Notes: generated by a model from the letters alone, not told the origin. A stretch of 64,000 bases of DNA from Mytilus galloprovincialis (GCF_965363235.1 NC_134847.1:69910935-69974934), one strand, 5' to 3'. Shown: positions 6,981-36,513, counted from the first letter of the stretch. Translations and numbers: made by a program.

Positions 6981-7199
6981 AATGTCAAAGATGAATTGGT
7001 GAATGTTATGTAATTGTAAGATCTCACGGATGAGGATGAGCAAAAACACATTGAAAAGTGGAATAATTATCTATCCAGTTGGTTTTTTTTCAATATTAAA
7101 TATTGGCCTTGTTTGTTCATTGTGAAGATCATTAAAGACACCAGCGGTTACATTGGTATTATATACTTTTATCTCATGATTCCGTCTCAATATTTTCAG

Positions 7200-7293
7200 G
7201 ACTCGCTACTGGATCCATGTCATAGAAAGCCCTGCCAGTCAGCAGAGATTTGTGAAATAAAACTGGATGGAAACACATTTTGTGTAAAAGATA
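7200..7293 (+). CDS. Mucin-like gene exon 2: EGF-like Cys module (DPCHRKPCQSAEICEIKLDGNTFCVKDS).
   Basis: Acceptor tattttcag at 7199 and donor GTAAGT at 7294. Phase-0 entry matches exon 1. Phase-1 exit (a) joins AA of exon 3 to give Lys. Confidence 0.55.
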
Positions 7294-8726: not shown

Positions 8727-11700
8727 AACCTATTACCACTACAACAAAAGACAATACAAAATTTCTCAATACTGGTACTTCAACAACGCAAATGAAAACA
8801 CTAACATCAATTTCTCGAATAGCCACAACAACTGAAGCAGCTAAAACCGTCACGTTTGATACTACTGCTGAGATACCATTAACAACAACCAAAGGTACAA
8901 TTGTCTCTGAGACCCATAGATCAAAATCTTACAAAACAACTCCTACAACAGCAACAACTTTGCTAGAGACAACCGCTTATAAATCATCGGTCTCTCCAAT
9001 TACTCATGACCAACCAATGGGATTTGCAGACACTATAGCTAGCTCTATGGCGCCAACAAAAATATTAACATCCCTCTCTGACATTCAGACGATTGCCTCT
9101 TATACAGATGATACGACTGTGACAGACACATCAATTGATACAGATGCTTTCGCAGCGGCAGAAAACATCGAACTTATTTCTAGATATAGTACTACTGGCA
9201 TTACCACTAAGACTATTGACAAAACCGATGATATTCTATTGACAAACACAGAAGGTACTACTGTATCTGAGACTCATAGACGAACATCTAATGATGCAAA
9301 TCTTCAAGTAGCAACAACATTGCTAGACACAACAGCTGAGCAAGCTTCAGTCTCTCTAATTACTGACATTAGACTGATGGAAACTACAAACACTATAGTA
9401 AGCTCAGTAACCCCAATAAAAACGTCAGCATTCATTTCTGAGAGTCATACGATTGGCTTTTTAACGATTGATGAAGCTCCTGTCACAACTGCCAAAACCA
9501 TTGAACTTACATCTATATATAATACTTCTGGCACTACCGCTGACATTCAATTGACAAACACAGAAGGTACAACTGCCTCTGAGACACAAGGACCAACATT
9601 TGACGAAGCAACTTACACAGCAACATCAACATTGCTAGAGACAACTGCTGCTAAAGCTTCGAGCTCTCCGATTAATTATGATAAACAGAATGAAATGACA
9701 GACACTATAGCTAGATCAGCAACGCAAACGAAAACACCGGTGTTTATTTCTGAGAGTCAAACGATTGGCTTTACAACAGATGGTAGTACTTTGACAGACG
9801 CAATAACTGATAAAGATACTAGTACTGTCACATCCGCAGACACCATAAAACTTACTTCTATATCGACAACTGGTGGCACTACCACTAACACTGTTGGTAC
9901 TTCTGCCCAACAGCCGTTGATAAAAGCCGAAAGTACAACTGTCTTTGAAACTCATGGGTCAACATCTGACGAAGTAACTCGCACATCAGCATCAACGTTA
10001 CATAAAACAACCACTCAAGCTTCGAACTCTCCGATTACTAATGATAACCAGACGAAAACAATAGCAAGCACAACAAATCCTGGGAGTACACCGCCATTCA
10101 TTTCTGACACTCAGACTATAGGTACTAAAACAAATGATACGACTGGTACAGCCGCAATAACTGATGGAGATACTGTTACAGCCGCAGAAACCTTCCAACT
10201 TACCTCTTTATCTTCTAATACTGTCACTTCCACTAAGACTGTTGGTACTACTGCAGACACACCATTGACAAACACAGAAGGTACATTTACTGTCTCTAAG
10301 ACTCATAAATCACCGTCTGACGAAACCACTCAAAGAGCTGCAGCAAACTTGCTAGAGACAACCGCTGATCAATCTTCGGTCTCTCAGATTACTAATAACA
10401 AATTGACAGAAACGACGGAAACCATAGCTAGACCAGAAACGCCAACACAAACGTCTACATCCATATCTGACAGTATGGCGATCGGCTTTACAACAGATGA
10501 TACTACGGCAACAGACACAACCACTAGTGAAACAACTGTCACAGCCGCAAAAACTATCGAACCCACTTCTTCATCAAATATTGTTGGCACTACAACTACC
10601 ACTTTTGGTACTACCGCAGAAAAACGGTTGATAGACACCGACGGTACAACTACTGTTTCCGAGACTCATGAATCACCATTTGACGACACGGCTCACACAG
10701 CAGCAATATCATTAATAGAGACTACCGCTGATCAAGCTTCGAGTTCTCCGATTACTTATGATGAACCGAGGGAAATATCGAACACTATAACTCACTCAGC
10801 AACGCCAACAAAAACAGCAGCAACCATTTCTGAGAGTCAAACAATTGACTTTACAACAGATGGGAGCACTGTGACAGACGCAATACCTGATGAAGATGCT
10901 GTCACAGCCGCAGAAACCATCAAACGTACTTCTATATCGTATAATGTTGGCACTACCACTCACATTGTTGGTATTTCTGCCGAAAAGCCGTTGATAAATA
11001 CCGAAGGGACAACTTTCTTTGAGACTCATGGGTCGAAATTTGACGAAACAACTCGCACCGTAACAACAACCGCTCAGCAAGCTTCGTACTCTCCGCCTAC
11101 TTATACAAAACTGAGGGAGACGACAGAAACAGTGGTTGGCTCAAAAACCCAAACGAAAACACCGGCATTCATTTCTAACACTCAGCCAATTGGCTCTAGA
11201 ACAGATGATACGACTATGACAGACACAACAATTCGTGAAGTTTCTGTAACAGCTGCAAAAACCATCAAACTTTCCTCTATATCAAATAATATTGGTACTA
11301 CCGAAGAAACCCCATTGATAAACACCGAAGGTACAACTACTGTCTCTGAGACTCACGAACTAGCATCCGACGCAACAACTCACACAGCAGCAACAACCTT
11401 GCTAGAGACAACAATCGAACAAGCCCTGGTCTCTCCGACTACCAATAATAAACTGAGGGAAATGACGGAGACTATAGCTAGCACAGCAATGCCAATTAAA
11501 ACTCCAGCATTCATTTCTTCCAGTCTGACGATTGGCACTACGACCGATGAAACGACTTTGACAGCCACAACTATAAGGGAAGCTATTGTCACATCCGCAA
11601 AACCAATCGAACTTACCTCTATATCTTATGCTGTTGACACTACCACCAACACTATAAGTACTCCGTTGACAAACACCAAAGGTACAATTGTCTCTGAGAC

Positions 11701-14443
11701 TCAAGGACCAACATTTGACAAAAACACTCACACAGCAGCAATAACCTTGCTAGAAATAACTTCTGATCAAGTTTCGAATTCTCCGATTACCAATGACAAC
11801 ACGACGAAAACGTTGGATAGTTTAGCGAGCACAGTAAATACAGTGAAAACACCGGCATCCATTTCTGACACTGAGACTATTGGGACTAGCATAAATGATA
11901 CGACTTTGACAGACGCAACAACTGATGAAAATACTGTTACAACTACCAAACATATGTCTCTTAACATTGGCACTTCTACCAAGACTATTAGTACAACCGC
12001 AGAAATACAGTTGACAAACACAGAAAGTACATCTTTTGTCTCTGAGACTCGTGGATCACCACCTGACGAAACCACTCACACAGCAGCCACAAACTTGCTA
12101 GAGACAACCACTGATCAATCTACGGTCTCTTCGATTACTAATTACAAATGGACAAAAACGATGGAACCCTCAGCTAGACCAGAAACGCCAACAAAAACGT
12201 CTACGTCCATATCTGACTCTCAAACGATCGGCTTTGCAACAGAAGATACTACGGCGACAGACACAACAACTAGTAAAGCTATTGACACAGACCTTAATAC
12301 CATTCAACTTACCTCGATGTCTAATACTGCTGGCATTACCACTAAGATTGTTGGTAGTATTACCGATAAACATTTGACAAACACAGAAGGTACAACTACT
12401 CTTTCTGAGACTCATGAACCAACATCTGACGAAACATTTTTCACAGCAGCAGCAACCCTGCTAAAGACCACAGCTGATCAAACTTCGGTCTCTCCGATTA
12501 CTAATGATAAACCAAGTCAAACGACGGAAATCATATCTAGCTCAATAACGCCTACGTCCATATTTGACACTCGGACGATCGGCTTTACAACAGATGATAC
12601 TCCGATGACAGACACAACCAGTGAAGCTACTGTAACAGCTGCAAAAACCATCAAACTTACCTCGATGTCTAATACTGTTGGCACAACCACAAGGAACATT
12701 GGTACTACTAGTATCACCGATAATTATTTAAAAAACACACAAGGTACAACTTCTGTTTCTGAGATTCATGGACCAATATCTGACGAAACAACTTACACAG
12801 CAGCAATAACCCTGCTAAAGACCACCGCTGATCAAGCTTCGGTATCTCCGATTACTATTAATAAACCGACGGAAACGACGGAAACCATAGCTAGCTCGAA
12901 AACGCCAACAAAAACGTCTATATCCATATCTGGTACTCAAACGATCGGCTTTAAAACAGATGATACTACGATGATAGAAAAAACAAATAGTGACGCTACT
13001 GACAAATCCGCCAAAACCATCCAACTTACATTGATATATAATACTGTTGGCATAATTACAAGGAACATTGGTACTATCACCGATAATTATTTAACAAACA
13101 CACAAGGTACAACTACTGTTTCTGAGATTCATGGACCAATATCTGACGAAACAACTTACACAGCAGCAACAACCCTGCTAAAGACCACTGCTGATCAAGC
13201 TACGGTCTCTCCGATTACTAATGATAAACCGACGGAAACGACGGAAACCATAGCAAGCTCTAAAACGCCAACAAAATCATCTACATTCATATATGACACT
13301 CAAACGATCGGCTTTACAACATATGATACTACGATGACAGACAAAACAACTAGTGACGCTACTGACACACCCGCAAAAACCATCCAACTTACCTCAATAT
13401 CTAACACTATTGGCCTTACCACTAGGCCTATTGGTTCTATCAGCGAGAAACATGTAACAAACACTAAAGGTACAACTACTGTTTCTGAGATTCATGGACC
13501 AATATCTGACGAAACAACTTACACAGCAGCAACAACCCTGCTAAAGACCACTGCTGATCAAGCTACGGTCTCTCCGATTACTAATGATAAACCGACGGAA
13601 ACGACGGAAACCATAGCAAGCTCTAAAACGCCAACAAAATCATCTACATTCATATATGACACTCAAACGATCGGCTTTACAACATATGATACTACGATGA
13701 CAGACAAAACAACTAGTGACGCTACTGACACACCCGCAAAAACCATCCAACTTACCTCAATATCTAACACTATTGGCCTTACCACTAGGCCTATTGGTTC
13801 TATCAGCGAGAAACATGTAACAAACACTAAAGGTACAACTACTGTTTCTGAGATTCATGGACCAATATCTGACGAAACAACTTACACAGCAGCAACAACC
13901 CTGCTAAAGACCACTGCTGATCAAGCTACGGTCTCTCCGATTACTAATGATAAACCGACGGAAACGACGGAAACCATAGCAAGCTCTAAAACGCCAACAA
14001 AATCATCTACATTCATATATGACACTCAAACGATCGGCTTTACAACATATGATACTACGATGACAGACAAAACAACTAGTGACGCTACTGACACACCCGC
14101 AAAAACCATCCAACTTATCTCAATATCTAACACTATTGGCCTTACCACTAGGCCTATTGGTTCTATCAGCGAGAAACATGTAACAAACACTAAAGATACA
14201 ACTACTGTTTCTGAGGCTCATGGATCAATATCTGACGATTCAACTCACACAGCAGCAACAACTCTGCTAAAGACCACCGCTGATCAAGCTTCGGTCTCTC
14301 CGATTATTAATGATAAACCGACGGAAACGACGAAAACAATATCTAGCTCGGAAACGCCAACAAAAACGTCTACATCCATATCTGACACTCAAACGATCGG
14401 CTTTAAAACAGATGATACAACGATGATAGAAAAAAACAACTAG
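8727..14443 (+). CDS. Mucin-like gene exon 3: about nineteen tandem 121-aa (363-bp) Thr/Ser-rich repeats, ending at TAG 14441-14443.
   Basis: Acceptor ctctttttcag at 8726 and phase-1 entry. Long open frame of 8702..14443. Repeat unit ...TNTEGTTVSETHGPxSDETTYTAATTLLKTTADQASVSPITNDKPTETTETIASS.TPTK.S.SISDTQTIGFTTDDTT.TD.TTS.AT.TAAKTI.LTS.SN.VGTT. The last three units (13141-14229) are identical. Confidence 0.75.
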
Positions 14444-16379: not shown

Positions 16380-18527
16380 ACATGCATATTAAGCTAGGAT
16401 CCCTTTTAACACAGTCTCGTGAGTCTATTGAACTGAAGACAGGGGACTCTCGTTTAAAAGAACTTGATAAAAAGCTAGAAGATGCTGAAAAAAATAAATG
16501 TTTCAATGATCTAGATTTTCCAATAAAGGACTCAGAAATATATTCTGCTATTGGTAGATTAAAAATGGATAAAGCTCCTGGATTAGATCATATTAGCAAC
16601 AACATTTTTAAAAGAGGCCAAATTTTCTTAACAAAATGTTTAATTAAATTGTTTAATACCAGTTTATTATATGGTTTATATCCTTAATCATGGGCGGAAA
16701 GATATATAAAAAAATGCATAAAGGTGGCGATAAAGATGAACAAAGTAACTATAGAGGCCTGACAATCACCAGCTGTGTTGGTAAATTATTCAATTGCATA
16801 TTAAACTCTAGATTGGATAATATTTTAATAAAGCATAATAGATGACTCTCAGATTGGTTTCACAAAAAAGGCTAGAACATCTGACCATATATTTATATTA
16901 AAATGCATTATTGATAAATACTGTTCACATATGATATTAAAGGATGGTAGAGTGTTTGTCTGCTTTGTTGATTTAAGAAAGGCTTTTGACACTGTAATTC
17001 ATACAGGATTAAGACTTAAACTCTTAGAAATAGGGGTTGGTACTAAATTTTATAATGTTATTAAGAATATGTACTCTGTAAGTAAATCTTGTATAAAAAC
17101 AAGTAACACTGCTCGCATTGAAATGTTTGATAGTAAATTGGGAGTTAAGCAAGGCGACAACCTAAGTTCTAACTTGTTCAAAATATTTATTAATGACCTT
17201 CCTTCATTACTGAAACAAACATCAGATCCAATTATACTAAACTCTCGGCATATACATTGTTTGATGTATGCAGATGATATTTTTCTGCTCTCTTCCTCAT
17301 CGCATGGTCTTCAACAAAAACTAGATAATTTAGACATGTTAGATAAGTTTTGCAAACAGTGGTGTCTTACTGTAAATTTATCTGAAACCAAAGTACTTAT
17401 ATTCAATAAGGCAGGCAGACATCTCAAATATAATTTCAAATACAATGGAAAAATTGTTGAATGTGTAACCGAATGTAAATATCTTAGCATTACTTTTTGT
17501 TCATCTGGATCTTTCTCCAGACCTATGCTCAAAATGAACTTTATCAGAAGGGTCTAAAGGCTTATTTTAAACTGTGCAAGGAATTTATTTCTCACTGTCC
17601 TTCACCTTAAATCTCATTACATGTATTCGATCATTCTATTATGCCAATATTATTATATGGTTGTGAAACTTTGGGTTATTTTAATCCCTTTACAACAAGA
17701 TTGAAAAAAAAACCCTGATTTGTCCTTTGATGAAATTTATAAAAGAGTTAAATGTGGAAAAATGCATGTTAAATTATGTAAATTTGTTTTGGTTGTGGGA
17801 AAAAGAGTACACATTTTGCCTCCTTGTCATAACTTGGCAGATTAACCACACATTTTAATATCGTCAGTTCAATGCTTAAATATTGGCACTGTTTAGAAAA
17901 TTTACATAATCAATTTCCAATTCTAAAAGATGTCTATTTAACTTCCATAGAGTTGTACGAAAATAAACATCCTTCTTGGTATGGCTCTGTTTATATACAG
18001 AAAAACAGAATTTTTGATAACCATACTGACTTAACATGCTTAGAGTCAATGAAAACAAATAGTTTTAAGAAGACATGTAAAAAAATATATGAAAATTCAT
18101 TATATTAATCTTTGGCAAAAAAAAAAAAAAAACCATCATTATCAGACGGCAAACTGTGTACATACTTCAAGTTTAAACAAAATTTTGGATTTGAAAATTA
18201 TTTGAATATATTATAAAAGATTTTGGGCAGAGGAGAATTTTCACCAGATTCAGAATATCACCTCATAGACGTCAAAATGTTCAAATAGAGTTGGGAAGAT
18301 GTCAAGGTATTATCAGGCAAAATAGATTGTGTGTTCATTGCACATCTGGCAAGGTAGAAGATGAGATCCATTTTTTACTAACATGTACAAAGTATAAAGT
18401 TGAACGTTATGATCTTATAAATGCTATTTGTCCTAATTTTACCCAATTACAAAATCCTGAAAAATTTATTTGGATGATGAATAATGAAGATCATGAAATA
18501 TATGTAAAATTTGCTGTCGTATAGCCA
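16380..18527 (+). mobile_element. 5'-truncated, frameshifted non-LTR retrotransposon (LINE ORF2: RT domains, thumb, C-terminal CCHC). CR1/L2-like.
   Basis: KAPGLDHISNNIFK. YRGLTITSCVGKLF (other frame). FVDLRKAFDTV. MYADDIFLLS. SIMPILLYGCETLG. C-terminal RLCVHCTSGKVEDEIHFLLTCTKYKVER (18291..18524). No endonuclease region. Confidence 0.7.
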
Positions 18528-23989: not shown

Positions 23990-24118
23990 ATGTCGATATT
24001 TAGTGATTGTCAAATTGTCCTTGATTTGACAACCAGTGTCAACTTTAAGAAAAAGACAGAAATCAGGAAAAAGATAACTAATAATGGAGGAGTTATATCA
24101 TATATTGTCACTAAAAAG
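23990..24118 (+). CDS. PARP4: PARP4-like exon 1: start codon and N-terminal half of the BRCT domain.
   Basis: MSIFSDCQIVLDLTTSVNFKKKTEIRKKITNNGGVISYIVTKK parallels the vault-PARP N-terminus (IF.NC.F.L...KK...I..NGG..S). Donor AAG|GTAAAC at 24119. Phase 0 joins exon 2 at 34164. Confidence 0.6.
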
Positions 24119-24175
24119 GTAAACATCATAGAACTCGCCATTTACCAATTTCCAGATTTTAGAATTTTATACTAA

Positions 24176-24240
24176 GAAGATGTGGGGTATGATTACAATG
24201 CGAAAACTATAATCCAACAGAATTCAAATGACCAATATAA
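24176..24240 (+). mobile_element. SINE-like family fragment (head only).
   Basis: gaagatgtggggtatgattacaatgcgaaaac. Confidence 0.35.
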
Positions 24241-25032
24241 CAACAATTTTACCTTTTTTTTTATTAGTTTTCATTCATCTGGACAGTTGAATTTAAATGT
24301 TATCAAGAAATAAAAAAATAAAAATTGAAGTATGAGAAACCATATAGATATTAGGGTTTCAATAAATGGCATAAACTGAGCTGGAGTTATTTCCCTTAGT
24401 CATCATTTTGAAGGTGGTTGATTTTAAACTAGATTTTTTAAGGAAAAAAAGTCAGTTATTGATTTGGTGATATATGGCGGTGAGTAGGCTGCCAAACAAT
24501 GTCCATTCATTAACATGCAAACGCTTTGACATAATTTTTCAAATTCAGATATGTTGTTTCAAACTCAGACCATTTGTTACAAAACCTGGATGTTTAAATG
24601 TTGCTCTCGAAAAAACATGGACAATGCAAATCACAAAATTTTAAGTTAAATACAGTCAAACCTGCTTAAGAGACCATCTGTATTAAGCAAAACCCTGTAT
24701 CATACGACCATAAATTTAGATCCCTCTAGCTGTAGTACATTTCATATAGTTTGAACCTGTAATAAAAGACTACATGTCTTCATGAGAGACCACTTTTTTG
24801 TTCTCCCTTAACTTTACTGGTCTCTAAAAACAGGTTTCACTGTACAATAATATTTTGTGACTTTTTTGCTCTAAACATGTATAGTATTCAAAATAAGATG
24901 GACAGTCACGAATAAGACTGTTATAATTAGGAAATAGCACTTGTTTTATCACGAAAAAAAAACCCCACAAGATCTGCATCCGAAAAAAAGTGGACGAATT
25001 CACTTGAAAAGAACACAATCTTTGCCAGACAC

Positions 25033-25055
25033 TATATATATATATATATATATAC
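25033..25055. repeat. (TA)n microsatellite.
   Basis: Read directly. Confidence 0.8.
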
Positions 25056-25157
25056 CTACTGTTCAAAGAGCATTTTTATTAGTTGCCCAAATTTCATTTC
25101 TTGGATTTAAAACTGTGAATTAAGAAATTATTGTGTGCATTTATATTATTATTGTGA

Positions 25158-26310
25158 CTTTTTATACGACTGCAAAAAATGTTTGAGGTCGTATATTGGT
25201 ATGACGTTGGCACATTGGTTTTCGCACTATCACTTTAGTTTTTGTAAATAGAAATCTATGAAAATTAAACGCAAGGTTTGTGACCACTAAAGGAAGGTTG
25301 GGATTGATTTTGGGAGTTTTGGTCCCAACAGTTTAGGAATTAGGGGCCAAAAAAGGGCCCAAATAAGCATTTTTCTTGGTTTTCGCACAATAACTTTAGT
25401 AAAAGTAAATAGAAATCTATGAAATTTAAACACAAGGTTTATGAACACAAAAGGAAGGTTGGAATTGATTTGGGAGTTTTGGTCTCAACAGTTTAGGAAT
25501 TAGGGGCCAAAAAGGGGCCCAAATAAGCATTTTTCTTGGTTTTGGCACCATAACTTTAGTATGAGTAAATAGAAATCTATGAAATTTAAACACCATAAAA
25601 GGAAGGTTGAGATTGATTTTGGGAGTTTTAGTCCCCACAGTTTAAGAATTAGGGGCCCAAAGGGTCCAAAATTAAACTTAGTTTGATTTCATCAAAAATG
25701 GAATAATTGGGGTTCTTTGATATGCCGAATCTAACTGTGTATGTAGATTCTTAATTTTTGGTCCTGTTTTCAAATTCGTCTACAATAAGGTCCAAGGGTC
25801 CAAAATTAAACTTAGTTTGATTTTAACAAAAATTGAATTCTTGGGGTTCTTTGATATGCTGAATTTAAACATGTACTTAGATTTTTGATTATGGGCCCAG
25901 TTTTCAAGTTGGTCCAAATCGTGGTCCAAAATTAAACTTTGTTTGATATCAACAAAAATTGAAACCTTGGGGTTCTTTGATATGCTGAATCTAAACATGT
26001 ATTTAGATTTTTGATTATAGGCCCAGTTTTCAAGTTGGTTCAAATCGGGGTCCAAAATTAAACTTTGTTTTATTTCAACAAAAATTGAATATATGGGGTT
26101 CTTTGATATATGCTGAATCTAACCATGCATTTAGAATTATGATATTTGGGCCCGGTTATCAAATTGGTCCACATTGAGGTCTAAAGGGTCCAAAATTGAA
26201 CTTTATTTGATTTCATCAAAAATTGAATTCTTTGGGTTCTTTGATATGCTGAATCTAACCATGTAATTAGATTTTGGATATTGGACCATAATAGGTAAAT
26301 GTCCAATTTA
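25158..26310 (+). mobile_element. Satellite-bearing non-autonomous composite element, copy 1. This is the 5' part; its 3' tail resumes at 33647-33756 after the nested Ngaro.
   Basis: Starts ctttttatacgacYgcaaaaa...ggtcgtata (9-bp hairpin) as in copy 2 at 50643. Contains satellite I (units of about 150-171 bp, 25215-25640) and satellite II (units of about 126-138 bp, 25662-26290). Both satellites carry GGGCCC. Confidence 0.6.
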
Positions 26311-27320
26311 TACAAAATTCTCAGAAATGATCCTGAATATGTTTAATTGTCATTTGTTCCATGTTTGCAATGTGTTCTGATTCTTTGTAAATATTTTTTA
26401 GGGTAAATTTATTTCTGTTTGATGTGATGCTGTTCTAATCTTATTTTAATTGTCTTTTGTTTATACTGTATCTTTTCTGTGGTAATCTGTTATGTAATAG
26501 GGAAATGTGTGTTAACACCTGAGCAAACATCCAACCTCATATCTTCTTGCAAATTCTTTGACCTGACAATTAAACCATCCTGATCTAACTTTCGGTCCTA
26601 TATTTTAATTTTGCTAATAAATGTGTCAGTGAACAAAATCCTCAAAGTCACACATAATGAGTTCATATTAATTTCATAGTAATTTAAATAATTTAATTAC
26701 CCCTGATTTCTTTCAGAACACACTGTTTGAACTCATGATATGTAAAATTAAGGATTTAGTGCTCACATTATTATCAACCTAATTTTTCCTGCTATCACCT
26801 ATCTTGTAAATAAACTCCTGGGAAATACTGTGTAGCAATGCCATTGGTATCCATGTTTGAATTAAACATAAATCATAATTTAATTGCAACTTTTATTTTA
26901 TATATATACATCACGATTATAATTTGGCCCTTGGGGAAACTACTCAGCTAAAAAATTTAATTTTTTGCTCCATGCCTAAACCAAGAGCCTAGCTATGTGC
27001 ATACTGAAAAGTAGCAAAGTATAGACCCCTGGCTTGACATCACACCAATCCAATTGGAACGATGGTTCAAAATAAATGCATGAGGCTATCAGGAAGCCTA
27101 TGAGGCTATCATTCCTAGAGGCTATCATGCCTATGAGGCTATGAGGAAGCCTATAATGAGACAATGAGGAAGCCTGTAAGGAGGCTATGAGGAAGCCTAG
27201 TAGTGTTGATGTTGAATTGGTGTTGGAATGAATTTGTATGAAATTTGACAGTTTATCCCCAGAAATTCTTGGGGGATGAGTGAAATTTTTGAAACAACCA
27301 GTGATAAAATTTCATAAATG
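26311..27320 (-). repeat. Ngaro terminal direct repeat, copy at the element 3' terminus. Contains ATGAGGCTATCA/GAGGAAGCCT subrepeats at 27087-27200.
   Basis: Identical, as read, to 27841-28856. Confidence 0.8.
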
Positions 27321-27398
27321 AAATCAATAAACATAATGCTGAGATTGCTTCCCCTGTCATGGCAATATTGAAGGTGAAAGGAGGGGTCGGTGGGAGGC

Positions 27399-27839
27399 AA
27401 GTTTTTAGCTAAAACCTATTAGCACTATTAGCCAAGATTATTCTATAACTGCTTAATCTGCATTTAGATAAATGAATACTCAAGGCAGCATACACAGGTT
27501 TTTAATACACAACTTCTTAATGGGATACTCCTAAGTGGGAGGAGTTAAAACTGCACCCAGATTAATGTATCAAGAAACAAAGGACAAAGGAAGCCAAATG
27601 CCACAAGTGGTCACTAATTAACAAGACATGTATATTTGTATTGGAACTGATGAAATTAGACCTCCTGCTAAGAACATGTGATAAACTTCATATCTAACTG
27701 ATTGACATATGATAATAAATCTGTTTCATCTCAACAGCAAAGAAAATACACATCCTGGGAAAATCCTAAAATAATGACTACTGAGTAATTAAAATCAAAT
27801 TATGTATAAACATACTTATATAACATATAAGTACCTATT
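27399..27839 (-). repeat. Ngaro internal copy of the 0.44-kb repeat, identical to 33203-33646.
   Basis: agtttttagctaaaacctattagcac...gtacctattta is present at both sites. Confidence 0.8.
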
Positions 27840-27840
27840 T

Positions 27841-28856
27841 ATACAAAATTCTCAGAAATGATCCTGAATATGTTTAATTGTCATTTGTTCCATGTTTGCA
27901 ATGTGTTCTGATTCTTTGTAAATATTTTTTAGGGTAAATTTATTTCTGTTTGATGTGATGCTGTTCTAATCTTATTTTAATTGTCTTTTGTTTATACTGT
28001 ATCTTTTCTGTGGTAATCTGTTATGTAATAGGGAAATGTGTGTTAACACCTGAGCAAACATCCAACCTCATATCTTCTTGCAAATTCTTTGACCTGACAA
28101 TTAAACCATCCTGATCTAACTTTCGGTCCTATATTTTAATTTTGCTAATAAATGTGTCAGTGAACAAAATCCTCAAAGTCACACATAATGAGTTCATATT
28201 AATTTCATAGTAATTTAAATAATTTAATTACCCCTGATTTCTTTCAGAACACACTGTTTGAACTCATGATATGTAAAATTAAGGATTTAGTGCTCACATT
28301 ATTATCAACCTAATTTTTCCTGCTATCACCTATCTTGTAAATAAACTCCTGGGAAATACTGTGTAGCAATGCCATTGGTATCCATGTTTGAATTAAACAT
28401 AAATCATAATTTAATTGCAACTTTTATTTTATATATATACATCACGATTATAATTTGGCCCTTGGGGAAACTACTCAGCTAAAAAATTTAATTTTTTGCT
28501 CCATGCCTAAACCAAGAGCCTAGCTATGTGCATACTGAAAAGTAGCAAAGTATAGACCCCTGGCTTGACATCACACCAATCCAATTGGAACGATGGTTCA
28601 AAATAAATGCATGAGGCTATCAGGAAGCCTATGAGGCTATCATTCCTAGAGGCTATCATGCCTATGAGGCTATGAGGAAGCCTATAATGAGACAATGAGG
28701 AAGCCTGTAAGGAGGCTATGAGGAAGCCTAGTAGTGTTGATGTTGAATTGGTGTTGGAATGAATTTGTATGAAATTTGACAGTTTATCCCCAGAAATTCT
28801 TGGGGGATGAGTGAAATTTTTGAAACAACCAGTGATAAAATTTCATAAATGGCCAT
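27841..28856 (-). repeat. Ngaro internal copy of the 1.01-kb repeat.
   Basis: Identical to 26311-27320. Duplicate ORFs 26976..27164 and 28507..28695 give the same peptide. Confidence 0.8.
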
Positions 28857-29079
28857 AACACAGATGGTAACAGCTGAGTGTCCCCAAGGATTTGTGAGGT
28901 TAGGGAGGGGGTACCTTCAATAAAGCCATGAAATAAAAAAAAAATAAAAAAATAATAAAAATAATAAATGTTATCACATAATAATACACAATATCAAAAT
29001 CAATTGTCAAACAAAAACAATATCATCTAGAATCTCTGTAAAAAACATGTGTATGGAATATTTGAAAATGAGCATGCCC

Positions 29080-30093
29080 TTAAATTCTACCTAACCTACT
29101 TTGAGCTGTTTTAATAGATGCTGGCGTTACCCTAATGTATCTGATGTAACTATCTGAAGTCCAGCGCCCTAATGTTTTTATCAAGTGATCTTCTATTTTT
29201 GCCTTACCAGCACTTGTAGCTGCCCCAATTCTAAAACTATGACCATTATAATGACTTGAGTTGAAACCACATATATCCAGTACTTTTTTGATACAAGTGA
29301 TGAAATATTGTCTCTCCAAAGGTTTCTTATCAATGGTTATGAAAAGTGGATCAGTTTGATTAGTAGGAGAAAATTCTTTCCTTATTTGTATATATTCTAA
29401 CAAAATTGTGTAAGGGCAGATAAGCTGACCTAATTTATGTAGCTGTAGATTTATGCCTTTTCTAAAAGGATCTGTTTTTGATTGTTTTAATTTCAAAACT
29501 ACTAAGTCTGAGTGAAATACAACATCTTCAATACATAAATTTATATGTGGATCAAACTGTGAGGCCTTTGACACTGTAAACTCGCCACATCTCAAAAATC
29601 CATAAAATGCGACAATGCATGCAGTTCTTAACATTAAATCAGTAAACTTGGAACAAAAACCTTTTCTCAAACAATTTACAATTTTTTCCAAAATTTCGAA
29701 AGTTATTGGTAATCTTATGTGATTTTTTGTTTTTTGCAGTCTTTTTACAGAATTTAAAACATAATCAAGTCTGATTAAAGGTGTATTATGAGCAGATTGT
29801 AAGGGATCATTTTGATTACCCTGTACATATTTATACCTAATTCCACATAAATATAATTTAATGGTAGAGTATTGTAAACTCAGAACTTTAAAGCAGTGGG
29901 CTATGAAATAAATTAAAATATCCTCAGAAATAGGAGGTAAATTAGAAAATTGAAAACCATTCAATAACATAAAAGTCTCAAATTTTCTGAACCCAGTATC
30001 ATAAACAGTTCTTGTAGTATTAGCAATAGCACTGTTCCAAAGTTCATTCACTGCTTGATTTAGGACCACATTACATCTGAGCTGCTTGGGCAC
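29080..30093 (-). CDS. Ngaro tyrosine recombinase (phage-integrase-type YR), 337 aa.
   Basis: Box I FLRCGEF. Box II GHSFRIGAATSA. LGRWTSDSYIRYIR carries the Tyr nucleophile, so the R-H-R-Y set is present. Overlaps the RT ORF by 34 nt. Confidence 0.85.
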   Translation of the reverse strand: MPKQLRCNVVLNQAVNELWNSAIANTTRTVYDTGFRKFETFMLLNGFQFSNLPPISEDILIYFIAHCFKVLSLQYSTIKLYLCGIRYKYVQGNQNDPLQSAHNTPLIRLDYVLNSVKRLQKTKNHIRLPITFEILEKIVNCLRKGFCSKFTDLMLRTACIVAFYGFLRCGEFTVSKASQFDPHINLCIEDVVFHSDLVVLKLKQSKTDPFRKGINLQLHKLGQLICPYTILLEYIQIRKEFSPTNQTDPLFITIDKKPLERQYFITCIKKVLDICGFNSSHYNGHSFRIGAATSAGKAKIEDHLIKTLGRWTSDSYIRYIRVTPASIKTAQSRLGRI

Positions 30094-31553
30094 TTCATTG
30101 GATGTTGTGCTGCACTGGGAGCTAGTTTGCGGAATCTGTCTATCTGTAAACGAGATAGAGCATCACTTATATCATTCTGATATCCTGGAACATGTTTGGC
30201 ACTAAAATGAAAGTTGTATTTACAAGCACACCATGTAAGTTTCCTCATTAATTTCATTATTTGTAAACACTTTGAACGGCCCTTTTTTACTATAGCCACT
30301 GTAGCTTCATTGTCACACCAGAAAAGAATGCGTTTTGTTGTCCACTGTGAGCCCCACAGTATTGCGGATACTACAATGGGGTATAATTCAAGAAAAGCCA
30401 TTGAAAATGTTTTGTCAGGATAAGCAATGTTTGATGGCCATGATGAATAAAACCATTCTCCCTTGAAATATCCACCAAATCCTTTTGTTGATGAGGCATC
30501 AGTAAAAAGTTCCATATCATAACTTGAGTAAAATTGTCTACTGTAAAACATGTTCACACCATTCCAGCTGCTCAGAAAAAGTAACCAAAATTCTAGGTCA
30601 ACACGGCATTCCTTATCTAATTTAACATAATGATGCAAATCATTGACAGTAGTGGACAGCCCTATGAGGTATGAAACAAAGGATCTACCAGGTAAAATGA
30701 CACGTGAAGCAAAGTTTAAGTGACCCAAAAGCTGCAACAATTCCCTTTTTGTACAAGATTTTTTCCTGCATAATTTTTTGATGAATTCACAAATGCGATC
30801 AACTTTATTAAGAGGTAGTCGAGCTTCCATTTTTTCAGAATCTAGAATAATACCCAAATATTCTAAACATTTTACAGGACCTATTGTCTTATGTTTTGCT
30901 ATAGGAATGTTCAGTTTTTTGAAAATCATCATCATTATAGCCATAGTCCTCTCACCATCAGCATCTGGTGGATCTATGGTTAGGAAATCATCCAATAAAT
31001 GCAAAATGCTATTAACTTTGTAATTGTTTTCTGCAATATGACACAAAGCTTGGGATAAATGGTCAAAAATTTTGGGGCTTGAACGACATCCAAAAGTTAA
31101 ACGGACATAAAAATAATACATTTTTTCCCATTTTATGCAGAAAAGAGGCCACTGACTTGGTACAATTGGACAATTTTTGAACGCGTCGGATATGTCGAAC
31201 TTGCAAAGCCAGGAATTTCTTCCAAATTTCAAAATAACATCAATGGCGTCATCTATTCTAACATAAGACATTGAGCAATCCTGTTTGTCAATAAGATCAT
31301 TAATACTTAGATGTTTATCATCATTATGTGGTGAAGATAAGTCCAATATTAAACGCTTTTTACCAGAATATTTCCCTTCTGCAATACCAATTGGGCTTAC
31401 CCTATAATTTTGAAAAGGGGGATCCTTAAAAGGCCCATACAAGAAACCTTTAAAAACTTCTTTCTCTATCAAATCAGAAACCACATCTGGTTGTGTCCTA
31501 GCAGATAAACTATTCCTACATTCTTTTGTAGGTAAATCTGTTGTAGATACCAT
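30060..31553 (-). CDS. Ngaro reverse transcriptase plus RNase H, 497 aa, with no methyltransferase domain.
   Basis: RT blocks LILDLS, KFDISDAFKNCPI, LTFGCRSSPKIF, HLLDDFL (YxDD equivalent). RNase H FTDASSTKGFGGYF...WCDNEATV. The ORF is too short for a DIRS-type methyltransferase, so Ngaro rather than DIRS. Confidence 0.85.
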   Translation of the reverse strand: MVSTTDLPTKECRNSLSARTQPDVVSDLIEKEVFKGFLYGPFKDPPFQNYRVSPIGIAEGKYSGKKRLILDLSSPHNDDKHLSINDLIDKQDCSMSYVRIDDAIDVILKFGRNSWLCKFDISDAFKNCPIVPSQWPLFCIKWEKMYYFYVRLTFGCRSSPKIFDHLSQALCHIAENNYKVNSILHLLDDFLTIDPPDADGERTMAIMMMIFKKLNIPIAKHKTIGPVKCLEYLGIILDSEKMEARLPLNKVDRICEFIKKLCRKKSCTKRELLQLLGHLNFASRVILPGRSFVSYLIGLSTTVNDLHHYVKLDKECRVDLEFWLLFLSSWNGVNMFYSRQFYSSYDMELFTDASSTKGFGGYFKGEWFYSSWPSNIAYPDKTFSMAFLELYPIVVSAILWGSQWTTKRILFWCDNEATVAIVKKGRSKCLQIMKLMRKLTWCACKYNFHFSAKHVPGYQNDISDALSRLQIDRFRKLAPSAAQHPMKCPSSSDVMWS

Positions 31554-31682
31554 AGTATCAAATCCTTTCTCTAAGCCATTGCATAAATAGTTAACAGATT
31601 TTTTGTCAGGATGAGAAATTAATTCTTTTGCAAGTATAATAACATTAATTGGAGTAGTAGCCAGATATGGGAAATCATGTAG

Positions 31683-33083
31683 TCATTGACCTTGCTTATT
31701 TGTTGTTATTTTCTCAAACTTTTGTGAAGAGTTTACTGTATGTGGCTTAGATTGTACTTCAGTCCTACCTTGAGAGGGGAAAACTTTTTGACAAGATAAT
31801 AGGGTATGACCAGCGACTTTACATCTGCTACAGATATGTGAAAAATGACAAAAACTCCTGGTACAACCCCTACTGGTATTAAAATTATTGCAAACCTCCC
31901 GCCCAGAATGATAAATTTTCTTTCTACCTAACTTATCAGTAGTGTCTACCTGCCTTGATACTTTATCTGGGTAGTCTTGATATGTCATGGAGGTTTGCAT
32001 AGGACAAAAAGCAGTAGTGTGATCAACCAAATTACAAATTTTGCAAACATTTACATTCCCACCAGCAACTATTAATGAAAGAAGATCCCTATCTCTTTTG
32101 CTCCAGTCAACCTTAATCCTTCTCTCCCTTAAAAGAGCTGCTGATTTTGCAGAAAACAATTTATGGTAATCATAAAATCTGTCACCATAAAAATTACTAA
32201 TATCTATAATCTCATCTTCATAAGCATCTAGCTCTGCTCTACGGTCAGGGTAAACTGATGACATGACCCTCTTAAACTTGCCAAATGCCTTAATGAATTC
32301 TTGAATTGTGAGTTTTCTATTCAGACGGGGATCTGGCTTCCCAGAAATATTTAACTCTAACCCATTAGCTGCAACAGAGTGAATTTGGGGAGTTTCATAG
32401 TTTGGGATAAGCAGAGATGCCAAATTAACATCCTTACCGTCAATGATTTGCTTTTGAATAGAAGGAGATATAATGTCCACATTAGAATATTCATCCGAAC
32501 GCACTCCACATGAAACATTTCCAACTTGTGGTCCTGAGATGAAAGATGCATGCTCTTGTGTATTTCCATGTAAAACAGTATTATTTCCTCTGTTAGAAAT
32601 TTCACTCCTATTCCCAATCCCTGCATGGTTGTACCACTGTTGAAGGTTGAATTCGCGATCTCTACCTGTGTCATGAGTACAATTGTCTCTGTAAATTAGC
32701 TGTTTAAAGGTCTCTTGAAGTCCTTCAAAACACTGAGCTATGTTCCTGTCTGTTCCACCATTTGAAACACTGCTTCTGTGTTGATGCACTGATTCTGCTA
32801 AGGTAATTGGAAGAGTGCTCTCTGGTGAGGAATCTGTGTTAATCTCATCACTAATGGTGTCTGTCTGTTGTGTCTCTAAAGATGTTACTCCATCAAAACA
32901 ATTCTCTAAATAAAGTTGTTTTAACACTTGTTTTGACATACCAGAAGGTGTTCTTATTCCCTTTTTGTTAAGTTCTTCTTTTAGTTTGTTTATTGTCCAA
33001 TTAGAAGGGTTATTAGAATCCCATTGGGTCTCATACGGAGAACTCCTAGTTTTCCTTCGAACACCTTTTCCTCTGCCAGACAT
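31683..33083 (-). CDS. Ngaro Gag-like protein, 466 aa, with an N-terminal SAP-like motif and two CCHC zinc knuckles.
   Basis: INKLKEELNKKGIRTPSGMSKQVLKQLYL (SAP-like). CKICNLVDHTTAFC and CSRCKVAGHTLLSC (C-x2-C-x4-H-x4-C). Basic N-terminus. Confidence 0.75.
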   Translation of the reverse strand: MSGRGKGVRRKTRSSPYETQWDSNNPSNWTINKLKEELNKKGIRTPSGMSKQVLKQLYLENCFDGVTSLETQQTDTISDEINTDSSPESTLPITLAESVHQHRSSVSNGGTDRNIAQCFEGLQETFKQLIYRDNCTHDTGRDREFNLQQWYNHAGIGNRSEISNRGNNTVLHGNTQEHASFISGPQVGNVSCGVRSDEYSNVDIISPSIQKQIIDGKDVNLASLLIPNYETPQIHSVAANGLELNISGKPDPRLNRKLTIQEFIKAFGKFKRVMSSVYPDRRAELDAYEDEIIDISNFYGDRFYDYHKLFSAKSAALLRERRIKVDWSKRDRDLLSLIVAGGNVNVCKICNLVDHTTAFCPMQTSMTYQDYPDKVSRQVDTTDKLGRKKIYHSGREVCNNFNTSRGCTRSFCHFSHICSRCKVAGHTLLSCQKVFPSQGRTEVQSKPHTVNSSQKFEKITTNKQGQ

Positions 33084-33202
33084 TTTGTTGTCAGTTAATC
33101 CAAAATAATGTTTATTGTTTCAGGTTATATAGTTTGAATTATATTTAGTTGTTTAAAAACTGTCATATAGCTTTTGTAAAGTAATCCAAACACTGAAAGT
33201 TC

Positions 33203-33646
33203 AAGTTTTTAGCTAAAACCTATTAGCACTATTAGCCAAGATTATTCTATAACTGCTTAATCTGCATTTAGATAAATGAATACTCAAGGCAGCATACACA
33301 GGTTTTTAATACACAACTTCTTAATGGGATACTCCTAAGTGGGAGGAGTTAAAACTGCACCCAGATTAATGTATCAAGAAACAAAGGACAAAGGAAGCCA
33401 AATGCCACAAGTGGTCACTAATTAACAAGACATGTATATTTGTATTGGAACTGATGAAATTAGACCTCCTGCTAAGAACATGTGATAAACTTCATATCTA
33501 ACTGATTGACATATGATAATAAATCTGTTTCATCTCAACAGCAAAGAAAATACACATCCTGGGAAAATCCTAAAATAATGACTACTGAGTAATTAAAATC
33601 AAATTATGTATAAACATACTTATATAACATATAAGTACCTATTTAA
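33203..33646 (-). repeat. Ngaro 5'-terminal copy of the 0.44-kb repeat.
   Basis: Matches 27399-27839. Confidence 0.8.
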
Positions 33647-33756
33647 AAAATTTATAAGTTTTTAAGTTTAAGTTCTTAGACCACATTTATTCTGTGTCAA
33701 CTGTTCAGGGTTCGAACTCTGCGGCCGTATAAAGCTGCACCCTGCAGAGCATCTGG
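33647..33756 (+). mobile_element. 3' tail of composite element copy 1, displaced by the Ngaro insertion. Homologous to 52135-52296.
   Basis: aaatttWtaagtttttaagtttaagttcttagaccacatt...actgttcagggttcgaMctctgcgg...taaagctgcRccctgcagagcatctgg is shared by both copies. Copy 2 has an extra 60 bp. Confidence 0.6.
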
Positions 33757-34163
33757 ATAAGAATGGACATAAAGGCAAGTTTAATTATTGTGATTCCAGG
33801 AAAATATTTATACAGAGTTGTTTACTTGATATCAGAATGAAAGTTTCAATTAATGCGATACAAACCCACTCCCAGTCACATTATTCAGATGAATGTGAAC
33901 CTCACAAGAATTTTTGAATTCACTGTATACAGGACTATATATATCATGTATCTATATGTATCCCCAAATTTAAATAATGATTTCACTTGACTATTAACGA
34001 ATATATTTACAGAGTACACATGTTGTATGTAATGACCTTTTTATGAGCTATTAACATTTGACACAAATTTCAAAACCTCCCTAATGTCTACATGTCTTCC
34101 CTAAAGATCGATCATTATCATATTTGTTGTCTTGTTTATTATATGTTTCTGGTTTATTTACAG

Positions 34164-34362
34164 AGTACACATGTTGTATGTAATGACCCAGAAAAGGCAG
34201 ATATCAGTTACAAATGTAAGATGGCCTCAAAGTATGGATTACCAGTAGTGTCACTTGATTATATCCATGACTGTGTAGACCAGGGGAGACTACTCAATAC
34301 AGATAATTACATCCTTGTAGGAAAAACAAAGTCACAAGAATTCAGCTCAGGAAAGATAACAG
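34164..34362 (+). CDS. PARP4: PARP4-like exon 2: C-terminal half of BRCT.
   Basis: STHVVCNDPEKADISYKCKMASKYGLPVVSLDYIHDCVDQGRLLNTDNYILVGK. Acceptor ttatttacag, donor GTAAAA, phase-1 exit. Confidence 0.65.
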
Positions 34363-34865
34363 GTAAAAGGAAAAGGAAAAATAAACAAACTTATTTCATA
34401 AATGGAAAAGGGGTATCTACCAATATCTCATGTTTGGCCTACTGTTTGATTGAAGTTTTAAAACTTGAAATTAAAATTAGAAATAATTTTTCAATATTCT
34501 AAAGATTTCCAAAGTACAAATCTCTGAATACAATATGTATGACATTAGTTTTTTCAGACTTCAAAAATTGTTCAGTAGGTCTGAACGTACTTTAGTGAAA
34601 AATATTTTACATTACGGTTTTAAAATTATGTTATGTCCATTTATTGTAGAAGCGTAAGTGTATTGTTACACAAGCAAGGGCATTATCTGGGTCCTCATAA
34701 TGGACACATTCTCCATTTATATCAATATGTATTTGTCTTTACAACACAACATTTACCTGGCTTACAGATGAGGTAAAAATTAGCAGAAATGTAATAATTG
34801 TTAAATATTAAAATATTTAGACATGATGAATATATAAAAGAGGAATGATTTGTTTTGATTTGCAG

Positions 34866-35008
34866 CCTCAAAATATCAGAGCAAAGAACCCAAGAAGAAG
34901 AAATTTAAAATTGACCCTAAAAATGTTAAAGTTTGGAAGATAGAAGATAAAAATGCCCCAGAGTACAATGAAAAAGACTATGAGGTGGCTAAGTATGCCA
35001 TATTTCAG
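34866..35008 (+). CDS. PARP4: PARP4-like exon 3.
   Basis: ASKYQSKEPKKKKFKIDPKNVKVWKIEDKNAPEYNEKDYEVAKYAIFQ. tttgcag / GTAAGG. Phases 1 to 0. Confidence 0.6.
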
Positions 35009-35845
35009 GTAAGGAATAATGCTCTTATTTTTTAGAATTATAGAAATTAACAATTTTGTATTAGATTTTTTTTTTTTTTAGATGAAAGCGATTTTAAATG
35101 ATAATTTGGTTCTTATCTCTTTGTCTGTGCTTAGCCTGCAGTCAGATAGTATTTTAATTACAGAGTTCTTAAGTTAGTAATTTGCAGTGGAAAAAAATGT
35201 GTTTTCTGTTGTCTACATTTATTAGTGATTACCTGAAGTTAATTTCACATTGAGTGTGTTAAAAAATTGATTCCCATCTATATGAAATACTTAAGGAAAA
35301 TGTGACATCATGCACAAATAAAAAGTATATATATACCCTTGTAGTGAGGAAAATAAATAGTTAAAAACCAATTATTATAAACTATATATCTTTTTTTTTT
35401 GGTTAATACATTTTAAATTTTTTTAATTGTTCATTTGTGTCTGTTTCAAAAGATTTTGCAACGAACCAATTTTTAGAGAAGTCTATTTTATTTAAAAATA
35501 CCAGTTATTCATGCTGCTATACATGCACTGTGTAAGTTTGTTACTAAACATACAATAATGTAAACCAACTTATTTTCGCAGATACTTTATTTTGTGTTTT
35601 AGCCCTTACTAGCCCTTTTCATGGTGATTTAGTTTCACGATTTCAAATTTGATTTACGTATTTAAATAAGGAGAGATAAAAGTTTTACATATTTACCACT
35701 ATTTATATCAGCGTTATTTTTTATTTGTGAAAGCGCAAAAATAAATCGCTCTCAAAAATAAGTTGGTTTACAGTATTTCTTATCAGTAAAACTTTTTTAA
35801 ATGATAGGTAACATGTTACTGTTATTGTAGTTATATATATTTCAG

Positions 35846-35980
35846 AAATATGACAAGTTAAAAGAGACCATGCTGTTTTATAATTTGGAGATACATGTAG
35901 CTGAGCCGGTGGATTTGAACAGATCAGACTGTTATAGATTCAGGGTCTATTCACATTTTGGTTCACTGACTGACATTGAG
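35846..35980 (+). CDS. PARP4: PARP4-like exon 4.
   Basis: KYDKLKETMLFYNLEIHVAEPVDLNRSDCYRFRVYSHFGSLTDIE. This is the only open frame. atatttcag / GTAGAT. Confidence 0.55.
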
Positions 35981-36513
35981 GTAGATAAGATTATCAGATT
36001 GTAATTTCTTGATTTCCAAATATTTAGAAGATTCATAAGTTAAAGAACAACTACTGTGGATTCATTATTATTCGTTGGATACCATTTTTTGTGGATTATG
36101 GGGTACAGGTAAACCATGAAAGTAAAAGTTTGACCAACAACAAATTTTCTATTGGCTAAATGTGTTCACAATTTGGCAAAAACCATGAAATTAAATATCG
36201 ATGAACATATAAGTTTTCCTTAAGCCACGAACATTGATACCCATGAAAATAAATGAATCCACAATATCTGTCAAATTAATATAATTGATTGGTTAATAAG
36301 TTGTGCTGTGAAATATTTTTGTTCATAAAATTGCCATTGTTCTTATGTCTCTGATTGATACAAACATTGATGACATATTTTGTTAACCTGTATGTTTATT
36401 GAGATCTAATATCTGAACATTTACAGTTAATTATAAAATGAACACCAGTGTATAGTGTGGAAGAAAACCATATAAACAGCAGTCTGTAATAATGATTTGA
36501 TATTATTTTTCAG

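Follow-up and report, generated by a model that had tools for sequence, protein, structure and literature searches.

The minus strand of a 64,000-nucleotide stretch of the Mytilus galloprovincialis genome (GCF_965363235.1 NC_134847.1:69910935-69974934; the window, whose numbering is used throughout) carries three open reading frames (ORFs) framed by two pairs of long direct repeats, which raises the question of whether this locus holds an intact Ngaro element. Ngaro elements are tyrosine recombinase (YR) retrotransposons that lack a methyltransferase and possess split direct repeats in the order A-ORFs-B-A-B, with the internal repeats located downstream of the YR (PMC4157794, PMC3783388). An earlier note, made from the sequence by itself, had described an apparently intact, young and possibly active Ngaro-type element. 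Its intactness and its type are borne out by the repeats, the ORFs, the domains and the reverse transcriptase (RT) tree, and its youth and possible activity are supported at the level of the family. We conclude, with a probability of about 0.92, that window 26306-33645 (minus strand) holds a full-length and structurally intact Ngaro-superfamily YR retrotransposon of the Ngaro1-like clade in the Mytilus genome. This assignment brings together an RT/RNase H and a YR, the absence of methyltransferase, integrase and protease, the repeat order, the grouping of both the RT and the YR, and the absence of a target-site duplication.

The element is 7,340 bp long with a GC content of 33%, and on the minus strand (33645-26306) it is laid out as A1, gag, RT/RNase H, YR, B1, A2, a 77-bp spacer and B2, with the 5' untranslated region (UTR) between A1 and gag. 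No further copy of it was found within the 64-kb window. Self-comparison of window 24000-36000, followed by exact extension of the repeat pairs, defined the non-coding parts as follows.

33202-33645, minus strand: A1, the 5' split direct repeat, 444 bp, 100% identical to 27398-27841; its first 5 nt, TAAAT, are also the end of B
28852-29079, minus strand: unique 3' UTR between the YR and B1, 228 bp, with a C-rich tract at 28888-28911
27837-28851, minus strand: B1, the internal copy of the 1,015-bp repeat, 100% identical to 26306-27320
27398-27841, minus strand: A2, the internal copy of the 444-bp repeat, overlapping B1 by 5 nt (TAAAT)
27321-27397, minus strand: unique A2-B2 spacer, 77 bp, starting with the C-rich tract CCTCCCACCGACCCCTCCTTTCACC (27373-27397)
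26306-27320, minus strand: B2, the 3' terminal repeat, 1,015 bp, terminating in ...TTTTGTATAAAT

The alignment of both repeat pairs that the earlier note had proposed as a check returned 0 mismatches in the 444 bp of the A pair (27398-27841 and 33202-33645) and 0 in the 1,015 bp of the B pair (26306-27320 and 27837-28851). The repeat order that it had read as B-ORFs-A-B-A is the one found here with the letters swapped (A1-ORFs-B1-A2-B2). Its coordinates were within approximately 5 bp of ours and needed only small boundary corrections; it did not mention the 77-bp spacer. The two terminal repeats are unlike each other, with A at the 5' end and B at the 3' end, and no pair of inverted repeats of at least 40 nt was detected in window 24000-36000. 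On the sense strand the TAAAT shared by B1 and A2 recurs as the opening 5 nt of A1 and the closing 5 nt of B2, and the B1/A2 junction has the same sequence as the junction predicted for a circularized element. The repeats and the spacer contain no ORF longer than 67 aa. Each B copy includes short tandem repeats (16-bp and 23-bp units, GCCTATGAGGCTAT-like) at 27096-27199 and 28627-28730, and AATAAA occurs at B positions 424 and 908.

Between A1 and B1 the coding capacity of the element is divided among three ORFs.

31683-33083, minus strand: gag-like ORF, 466 aa, stop codon TGA; 138 homologs, mostly from Mytilus and other bivalves
30060-31682, minus strand: pol ORF (RT and RNase H), 540 aa counted from the codon after the gag TGA; first ATG at 31553
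29080-30162, minus strand: YR ORF, in the -1 frame relative to pol; open from 30162, with a GTG start at 30093 and the first ATG at codon 42

Counted from its first ATG, pol encodes 497 aa (31553-30060), the length that had earlier been judged too short to accommodate a methyltransferase. The frame remains open and conserved for 43 codons further back, to the gag stop, so that this length is an artefact of starting at the first ATG and the full ORF has 540 aa; the absence of a methyltransferase held. Among the domain searches suggested beforehand, RVT_1 was found in the window pol above the Pfam cut-off (E=3.6e-9), and no methyltransferase, integrase (rve) or protease (RVP) was matched anywhere in the element by Pfam, structure search of pol or ORF scan. 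In an alignment of 62 pol homologs the RT residue D163 and the LLDD pair D231-D232 were invariant, as were the RNase H residues D395 (TDAS), E432 (ELYP), D457 (CDN) and D507 (ADALSR). For the 540-residue pol, with the 43 residues that precede the ATG included, AlphaFold gave a model of high confidence (mean predicted local distance difference test (pLDDT) 92, predicted template modelling score 0.86). When this model was submitted to Foldseek it matched the complete RT-RNase H of cauliflower mosaic virus, foamy virus, Ty3, murine leukaemia virus (MLV) and the MLV-related XMRV, and human immunodeficiency virus over approximately 480-600 columns, with E-values down to 3.5e-18. The sequence itself gave only weak matches to MLV RT in the PDB (E approximately 0.01), and a structure-based search was needed. 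Only about 30 residues separate the ADALSR motif of RNase H from the start of the YR, and the pol C-terminus is conserved up to the stop codon (W539). Since RT and RNase H account for all 540 residues, pol has no room for a methyltransferase.

The YR ORF overlaps pol by approximately 100 nt (30060-30162). The 337 aa previously assigned to it apply only if translation is started at the GTG (30093-29080), which makes that length an artefact of the chosen start; the R-H-R-Y tetrad reported with it stood, and the catalytic residues align with those of Cre. Lying under the Cre motifs are R (FLRCGE), K (QSKTD), HxxR (HSFRIG), W (GRWTS) and Y (RYIR). The Phage_integrase match of the window YR was below the Pfam cut-off (E=1e-4), and BLASTP against reference Ngaro YRs reached E=1e-36. 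RT, RNase H and YR each carry a complete set of catalytic residues. The -1 frame and the overlap with pol were present in all three relatives examined (L006, L007 and L008). An AUG for the YR is lacking in the window element, L007 and L008; in L006 an in-frame ATG precedes the conserved region. YR ORFs that are frameshifted and overlapping have already been described in this class of elements (PMC3783388).

To place the element we used the RT and YR reference alignments of Ribeiro et al. 2019 (supplements 16 and 18; PMC6681497) and built neighbour-joining trees with 100 bootstraps, the RT tree including the window element and six mollusc homologs. The ten best references in the RT BLASTP search were all Ngaro-like, led by Ngaro1_DR (53% identity over 109 aa, E=1.7e-34), and PAT-like and DIRS1-like references scored 1e-14 or weaker. 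In the RT tree the window element and the six mollusc homologs grouped with Ngaro1_DR (97/100) inside the Ngaro clade (100/100), which was the outcome anticipated for an RT phylogeny if the initial classification was right. The Ngaro RT clade stood apart from the DIRS1-like, PAT-like, VIPER/TATE, Gypsy, BEL, retroviral, caulimoviral and hepadnaviral RTs. For the YR the nine best references were Ngaro-like, and the sequence paired with Ngaro1_DR in 74/100 replicates. The separation from DIRS and from long terminal repeat (LTR) elements that had been proposed held in every respect considered: inverted repeats, methyltransferase and integrase are missing, and the RT clades are distinct.

The closest homologs of pol and gag are M. 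edulis and M. galloprovincialis proteins of 98-99% identity, and more distant relatives, with approximately 60% identity, come from Pecten, Saccostrea, Patella and a large number of marine metagenome contigs. Three other loci, in GCA_900618805.1 (L001), GCA_905397895.1 (L002) and GCA_963676685.2 (L003), encode exactly the same 497-aa RT protein, and the elements there match the window copy at 99.5-99.6% identity. Because their flanking sequences fail to align with those of the window copy, they are different insertions. Such near-identical copies at other loci indicate that the Ngaro family of the window copy has been active recently. L001, which is full length (A1...B1-A2-77bp-B2), shows 5 differences between its B copies and, in the stretch from the gag stop to the pol ATG, frameshifting indels; it is an older, decaying sibling. 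Neither L003, whose 3' end meets an assembly gap, nor L002, which is cut off at both ends, is informative on the 3' junction.

The window copy has approximately 8 private substitutions, and variants private to it are carried by the two A copies alike (33619/27815 and 33220/27416) and by the two B copies alike (28127/26596). Such sharing is expected if the two members of a pair are copied anew from a single template during retrotransposition, as is the case for LTRs. Because pairs formed in this way show 0 differences across 1,459 paired bases of A and B, the data indicate a recent insertion of the window copy; the divergence between repeat copies is below 0.2% (the Poisson upper bound being approximately 3 differences in 1,459 paired bases). 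A further Ngaro family, distinct from that of the window copy, was identified in M. edulis at approximately 4403-10854 of GCA_963676685.2 OY782959.1 (L012). Its RT is approximately 62% identical, and its A repeats (170 bp) and B repeats (499 bp) are both 100% identical, from which more than one Ngaro family looks to have been recently active in Mytilus. Two short SRA-derived contigs, L004 (SRR16156404) and L005 (SRR16156427), contain the exact RT ORF with 99.4-99.9% nucleotide identity. They would be evidence of transcription if their source runs are RNA-seq. In the Saccostrea relative L010 no clear split repeats were seen. The metagenome contigs L006 and L008 have ends that overlap by approximately the k-mer length; the overlaps were treated as a collapse of the A/B repeats in the assembly graph and not as a sign of circular DNA.

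How such copies were inserted can be read from their ends. No target-site duplication was present in the window copy, L001 or L012. Instead, a short sequence is common to both element ends and the B1/A2 junction, namely TAAAT in the window copy, TAAA in L001 and AA in L012. By our estimate a sharing of 5 nt has a chance expectation of approximately 0.002 in AT-rich DNA. The 3' end of B is alike in the two families (TTTTGTATAAAT in the window element vs TTGTGTATAAA in L012), and the predicted empty site of the window insertion reads ...ATAAATTTTT-TAAAT-TGGACATTT. For DIRS elements, integration has been reported to involve a short sequence common to the circle junction and the target (PMC7192593). 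The shared end and junction bases match what a YR would leave after recombining a circle junction with a target that has a few nucleotides in common with it. Reading by eye also revealed an 8-bp inverted repeat with a 3-nt spacer (ACTTATAT GTT ATATAAGT) at 33618-33636 and 27814-27832 (minus strand), which sits next to the B/A junction, 5 nt in from the start of each A copy, and might serve as a recombinase binding site.

Gag was resolved into four small domains around a helical core.

32901-33011, minus strand: HeH (SAP/LEM-like) helix-extension-helix domain at the Gag N-terminus, aa 25-61, from Pfam matches of homologs and the AlphaFold 2 model
32004-32045, minus strand: first CCHC zinc knuckle, CKICNLVDHTTAFC, aa 347-360; C347, C350, H355 and C360 invariant in 51 homologs
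31836-31892, minus strand: CCCH (C3H1-type) zinc finger, CX8CX4CX3H, aa 398-416; C398, C407, C412 and H416 invariant in 51 homologs
31791-31832, minus strand: second CCHC zinc knuckle, CSRCKVAGHTLLSC, aa 418-431; C418, C421, H426 and C431 kept in at least 90% of homologs

Both knuckles, each of the form CX2CX4HX4C, had been recognized in the earlier note; the CCCH finger between them had been missed. The zf-CCCH match of the window Gag is itself sub-threshold (E=0.05), and the Gag homologs carry the source name 'C3H1-type domain-containing protein'. The SAP-like motif described there is real as a helix-extension-helix domain. Pfam assigned HeH/LEM to 12 of the 51 Gag homologs (best E=2e-8), SAP to 3 and Ish1 to 2, and the window Gag gave only a sub-threshold Thymopoietin/LEM-like match (E=0.006). 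The conserved N-terminal motif of these homologs is P.NWT...L..EL...GI..P....K..L..LY, and the AlphaFold 2 model has a helix at 31-40, a loop and a helix at 51-62 (pLDDT 91-94). Foldseek returned small, non-significant local matches of this domain to the C-terminal domains of CDNF and MANF (TM-score 0.73-0.80 over 36-42 residues), domains that have been described as SAP-like. In the literature search no topical report of a SAP domain in a retrotransposon Gag was apparent from titles and abstracts. As a putative DNA-binding module, the HeH/SAP-type domain could tether a DNA intermediate to chromatin. The helical core (aa approximately 193-341) is strongly conserved among the 51 homologs.

Gag and pol form one reading frame interrupted by a single TGA, beyond which the 43 codons to the first pol ATG are open.

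31680-31685, minus strand: gag stop and next codon, TGA CTA, in frame with pol, a candidate programmed readthrough site; same pattern in 7 lineages

The seven Ngaro1-like lineages compared were the window family, L006, L007-9, the Saccostrea element L010, the Pecten element L011, the second Mytilus family L012 and L013. In all seven, gag and pol are in frame and separated by exactly one stop, which is always TGA followed by C; five lineages have CTA as the following codon, one has CTC and one CAA. The amino acids neighbouring the gag stop are not conserved, and it is therefore the stop and its context themselves that have been retained. The sequence on the pol side of the stop is conserved as TPIN...L..EL..HPD..FV.YL..GL..GFDT, a consensus that lies upstream of the first pol ATG of the window element. 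There L33, G40, F41 and T43 are found in at least 90% of 62 sequences, and this N-terminus was modelled as two helices (pLDDT 96-97). UGA-CUA is a recognized readthrough-promoting context ('type II'), known from plant viruses, alphaviruses and some animal genes. Because the stop and its context are retained in seven lineages and UGA-CUA is known to promote readthrough, translation probably reads through the in-frame gag UGA to yield Gag-Pol. Several relatives have an AUG near the start of pol, which is a caveat on this proposal. A full-text literature search, which did not cover Goodwin & Poulter 2004, found no mention of readthrough in Ngaro.

The A2-B2 spacer is no peculiarity of the window copy. 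It measures 77 bp in the window element and 96 bp in L012, and 92 nt separate the B copies in L007. In all three lineages the spacer starts with a C-rich tract of the CCACC/CCTCC type of approximately 25 nt: CCTCCCACCGACCCCTCCTTTCACC in the window element, CCACCACCTTCCCCACCACCACC in L012 (10260-10282) and CCACCACCATCCCCGCCACCTTCC in L007 (5364-5390). The window element has only one other C-rich 24-mer, at 28888-28911 (minus strand), 37-60 nt upstream of B1. Our guess is that the tract might act as a priming or strand-transfer signal.

Could a different kind of element, or a faulty assembly, account for this arrangement? PAT-like elements also have split direct repeats, and methyltransferase loss has been described in the Pat1 lineage (a C. 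briggsae Pat1 derivative; PMC4157794), which would be the precedents for a DIRS1-like or PAT-like element with homoplasious split repeats and a recently lost methyltransferase. We regard this as very improbable, given that those elements form separate clades in the RT tree and the window RT falls inside Ngaro (100/100), that their RT E-values are 1e-14 or weaker compared with 1e-34 for Ngaro1_DR, and that the element has no inverted repeats and places its internal repeats downstream of the YR, as in Ngaro. An LTR retrotransposon, a nested composite or an assembly artefact mimicking A-B-A-B is equally hard to credit. Two long direct-repeat pairs around gag- and pol-like ORFs do look LTR-like at first glance, and de Bruijn assemblers collapse such repeats, as seen in the L006 and L008 ends that overlap by approximately the k-mer length. 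The 5' and 3' terminal repeats differ, however (A vs B), integrase, protease and target-site duplication are missing, the same architecture including the 77-bp spacer recurs at an independent locus in an independent assembly (L001), and L012, from another family, shows this layout with an A, a B and a spacer of its own.

A third possibility accepts a genuine Ngaro element that looks intact, and holds that this copy is not transposition-competent: either the missing AUGs of pol and YR would be real defects or the host would silence the copy, and only other master copies would move. In its favour, no in-frame ATG lies between the gag TGA and pol codon 44, the YR frame has none before codon 42, the sister copy L001 has frameshifts in the region between the gag stop and the pol ATG, demonstrating that decaying copies exist, and the window copy carries its approximately 8 private substitutions. 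Yet the in-frame TGA-C and the AUG-less -1 YR recur in lineages with only approximately 60% RT identity, and because of this recurrence they are family design features rather than lesions; all catalytic residues are intact and both repeat pairs are 100% identical. We consider incompetence of the window copy unlikely, while giving it appreciably more weight than the other two proposals. Several observations count against the conclusion that the window holds an intact, recently active Ngaro element. Support for the whole Ngaro clade in the YR tree was only 53/100, and both trees are neighbour-joining trees on short trimmed domains (approximately 196 RT and 157 YR columns), not maximum likelihood trees on the full Repbase set. 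The activity of the window copy itself is argued from family-level sequence data, and gene conversion or assembly polishing could in principle also give identical repeats. The pol/YR overlap offers no recognisable -1 slippery heptamer to a YR frame that starts without an AUG. No stable RNA structure follows the window gag UGA (z=+0.76), so that readthrough would depend on the local context by itself; the values for L006 (z=-0.36), L010 (-0.77) and L007 (-1.98, the only low one) do not point to a conserved stimulatory structure. For the Gag helical core no solved structure gave a significant match, and to call it 'capsid-like' is therefore an assumption.

An intact Ngaro element of this design suggests a replication cycle, which we modelled on the DIRS/Ngaro scheme (Cappello et al.; Goodwin & Poulter) as summarized in PMC7192593 and PMC3783388. 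A subgenomic transcript would start inside A1, end inside B2 and be reverse-transcribed, with the internal B1-A2 junction as the template from which the two incomplete ends are completed and joined. This cDNA would become a double-stranded circle carrying the B/A junction, GTATAAAT followed directly by AGGTAC; in full, the predicted B2-to-A1 circle junction would read ...TTTTGTATAAAT joined to AGGTACTTATATG. The YR would then recombine this junction with an AT-rich target sharing 2-5 nt, and the shared bases would be left at both ends without a duplication. Pol would be supplied as a Gag-Pol fusion through readthrough of the in-frame gag UGA in its UGA-CUA context, and the YR, in the -1 frame and lacking an AUG, would need a further recoding or reinitiation event. 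In DIRS-1 the internal junction region is essential, and the bulk of the cDNA is linear and single-stranded (PMC7192593).

Tyrosine recombinase retrotransposons are the least understood retrotransposon order. To our knowledge only DIRS-1 among them has been mobilised experimentally, and we know of no experimental work on the replication of Ngaro. It is therefore of some interest that the mollusc Ngaro1-like clade may possess a conserved set of three features, comprising UGA-CUA Gag-Pol readthrough, an HeH/SAP-type Gag and a C-rich element in a short, obligatory A2-B2 spacer; we put this forward tentatively, as somewhat doubtful. As far as the searchable literature goes, such a set is undescribed for tyrosine recombinase retrotransposons. 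If it is real, the window copy would be a good substrate for working out Ngaro replication. The testable sequences on offer are the candidate recombination site (GTATAAAT followed by AGGTAC), the UGA-CUA boundary, the AUG-less pol/YR overlap and the C-rich tract after A2. As a find, the element adds one more member to the Ngaro superfamily and leaves knowledge of the class unchanged. Specialists would not be surprised by it, because Ngaro is already documented in molluscs and bivalves: 53 copies in Lottia (PMC4157794), reports from across bivalves (PMC10294476) and 0.14-0.18% of the Mercenaria genome (PMC8905726). The locus does provide a clean, full-length reference for a recently active Mytilus Ngaro family, useful for transposable element libraries and for dating insertions. 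The added value is modest and lies in the UGA-C(UA) boundary, the HeH-CCHC-CCCH-CCHC Gag, the spacer with its C-rich tract and a defined junction core, which together make the element a reasonable model for Ngaro replication experiments.

The surroundings of the element are themselves repetitive. Tandem arrays at 25215-26279 abut its 3' end (a 160-bp unit x 2.9 and a 126-bp unit x 4.7, with 83-86% matches), and the array does not resume beyond the other side of the insertion. On the plus strand, an ORF at 34092-34502 has sub-threshold BRCT matches (BRCT_2 E=2e-5, BRCT E=3e-4) and is probably an exon of a host BRCT gene, approximately 450 bp from the element 5' end and on the opposite strand. 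Further away, window 8702-14443 (plus strand) contains an uninterrupted 1,913-aa ORF with Thr/Ser-rich repeats of roughly 130-140 aa and a mucin-like appearance, and the 208-aa ORF at 16931-17557 (plus strand) matches RVT_1 (E=3e-20) as a fragment of a different retroelement. An Rfam scan of 24000-36000 returned no family at gathering score.

Comparison with known systems places these features in context. Gammaretrovirus-type Gag-Pol resembles the window element in having gag and pol in the same frame with one stop between them, and the type II readthrough context is alike in that UGA is followed by CUA, or at least by C, in all seven lineages. Both differ from the window element, for which no downstream pseudoknot or stem-loop was detected and several of whose relatives have an AUG near the start of pol. 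LTR retrotransposons (Gypsy, BEL, Copia and retroviruses) are characterized by identical LTRs, a DDE integrase, a protease and a target-site duplication of 4-6 bp, none of which applies here. The PAT-like elements (PAT, Kangaroo and Toc) have split direct repeats and a YR like the window element, but differ from it in their methyltransferase, their repeat placement and their separate RT clade. DIRS-1 of Dictyostelium and the DIRS1-like elements likewise encode gag, RT/RNase H and a YR; their replication is taken to restore the ends from an internal junction and to lead to integration without duplication, at a short sequence shared with the target (PMC7192593). In contrast to the window element, DIRS-1 has inverted terminal repeats, an internal complementary region and a methyltransferase, and its RT clade is separate.

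Within Ngaro, the invertebrate Ngaro-like elements of Repbase (DIRS-6_CGi and DIRS-7_CGi of Crassostrea gigas, LvNgaro1/2, SpNgaro3 and DIRS-22_NV) fall into the same RT clade (100/100), group together in the YR comparison and have the YR motifs HSFRIGAAT and GRW.S..Y.RYIR in common with the window element. The window element and its mollusc relatives nevertheless form a distinct sub-clade with Ngaro1_DR, the oyster references being only 31-33% identical in RT. Some Ngaro elements carry an extra hydrolase-type ORF (PMC7192593), which the window element does not have. Its closest counterpart is Ngaro1 of zebrafish (DrNgaro1/Ngaro1_DR), which is the nearest reference for the RT and the nearest YR in the tree. 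Although the hosts belong to different phyla, Chordata and Mollusca, the two elements have the same A1-ORFs-B1-A2-B2 layout without a methyltransferase and the same order of gag, RT/RNase H and YR.

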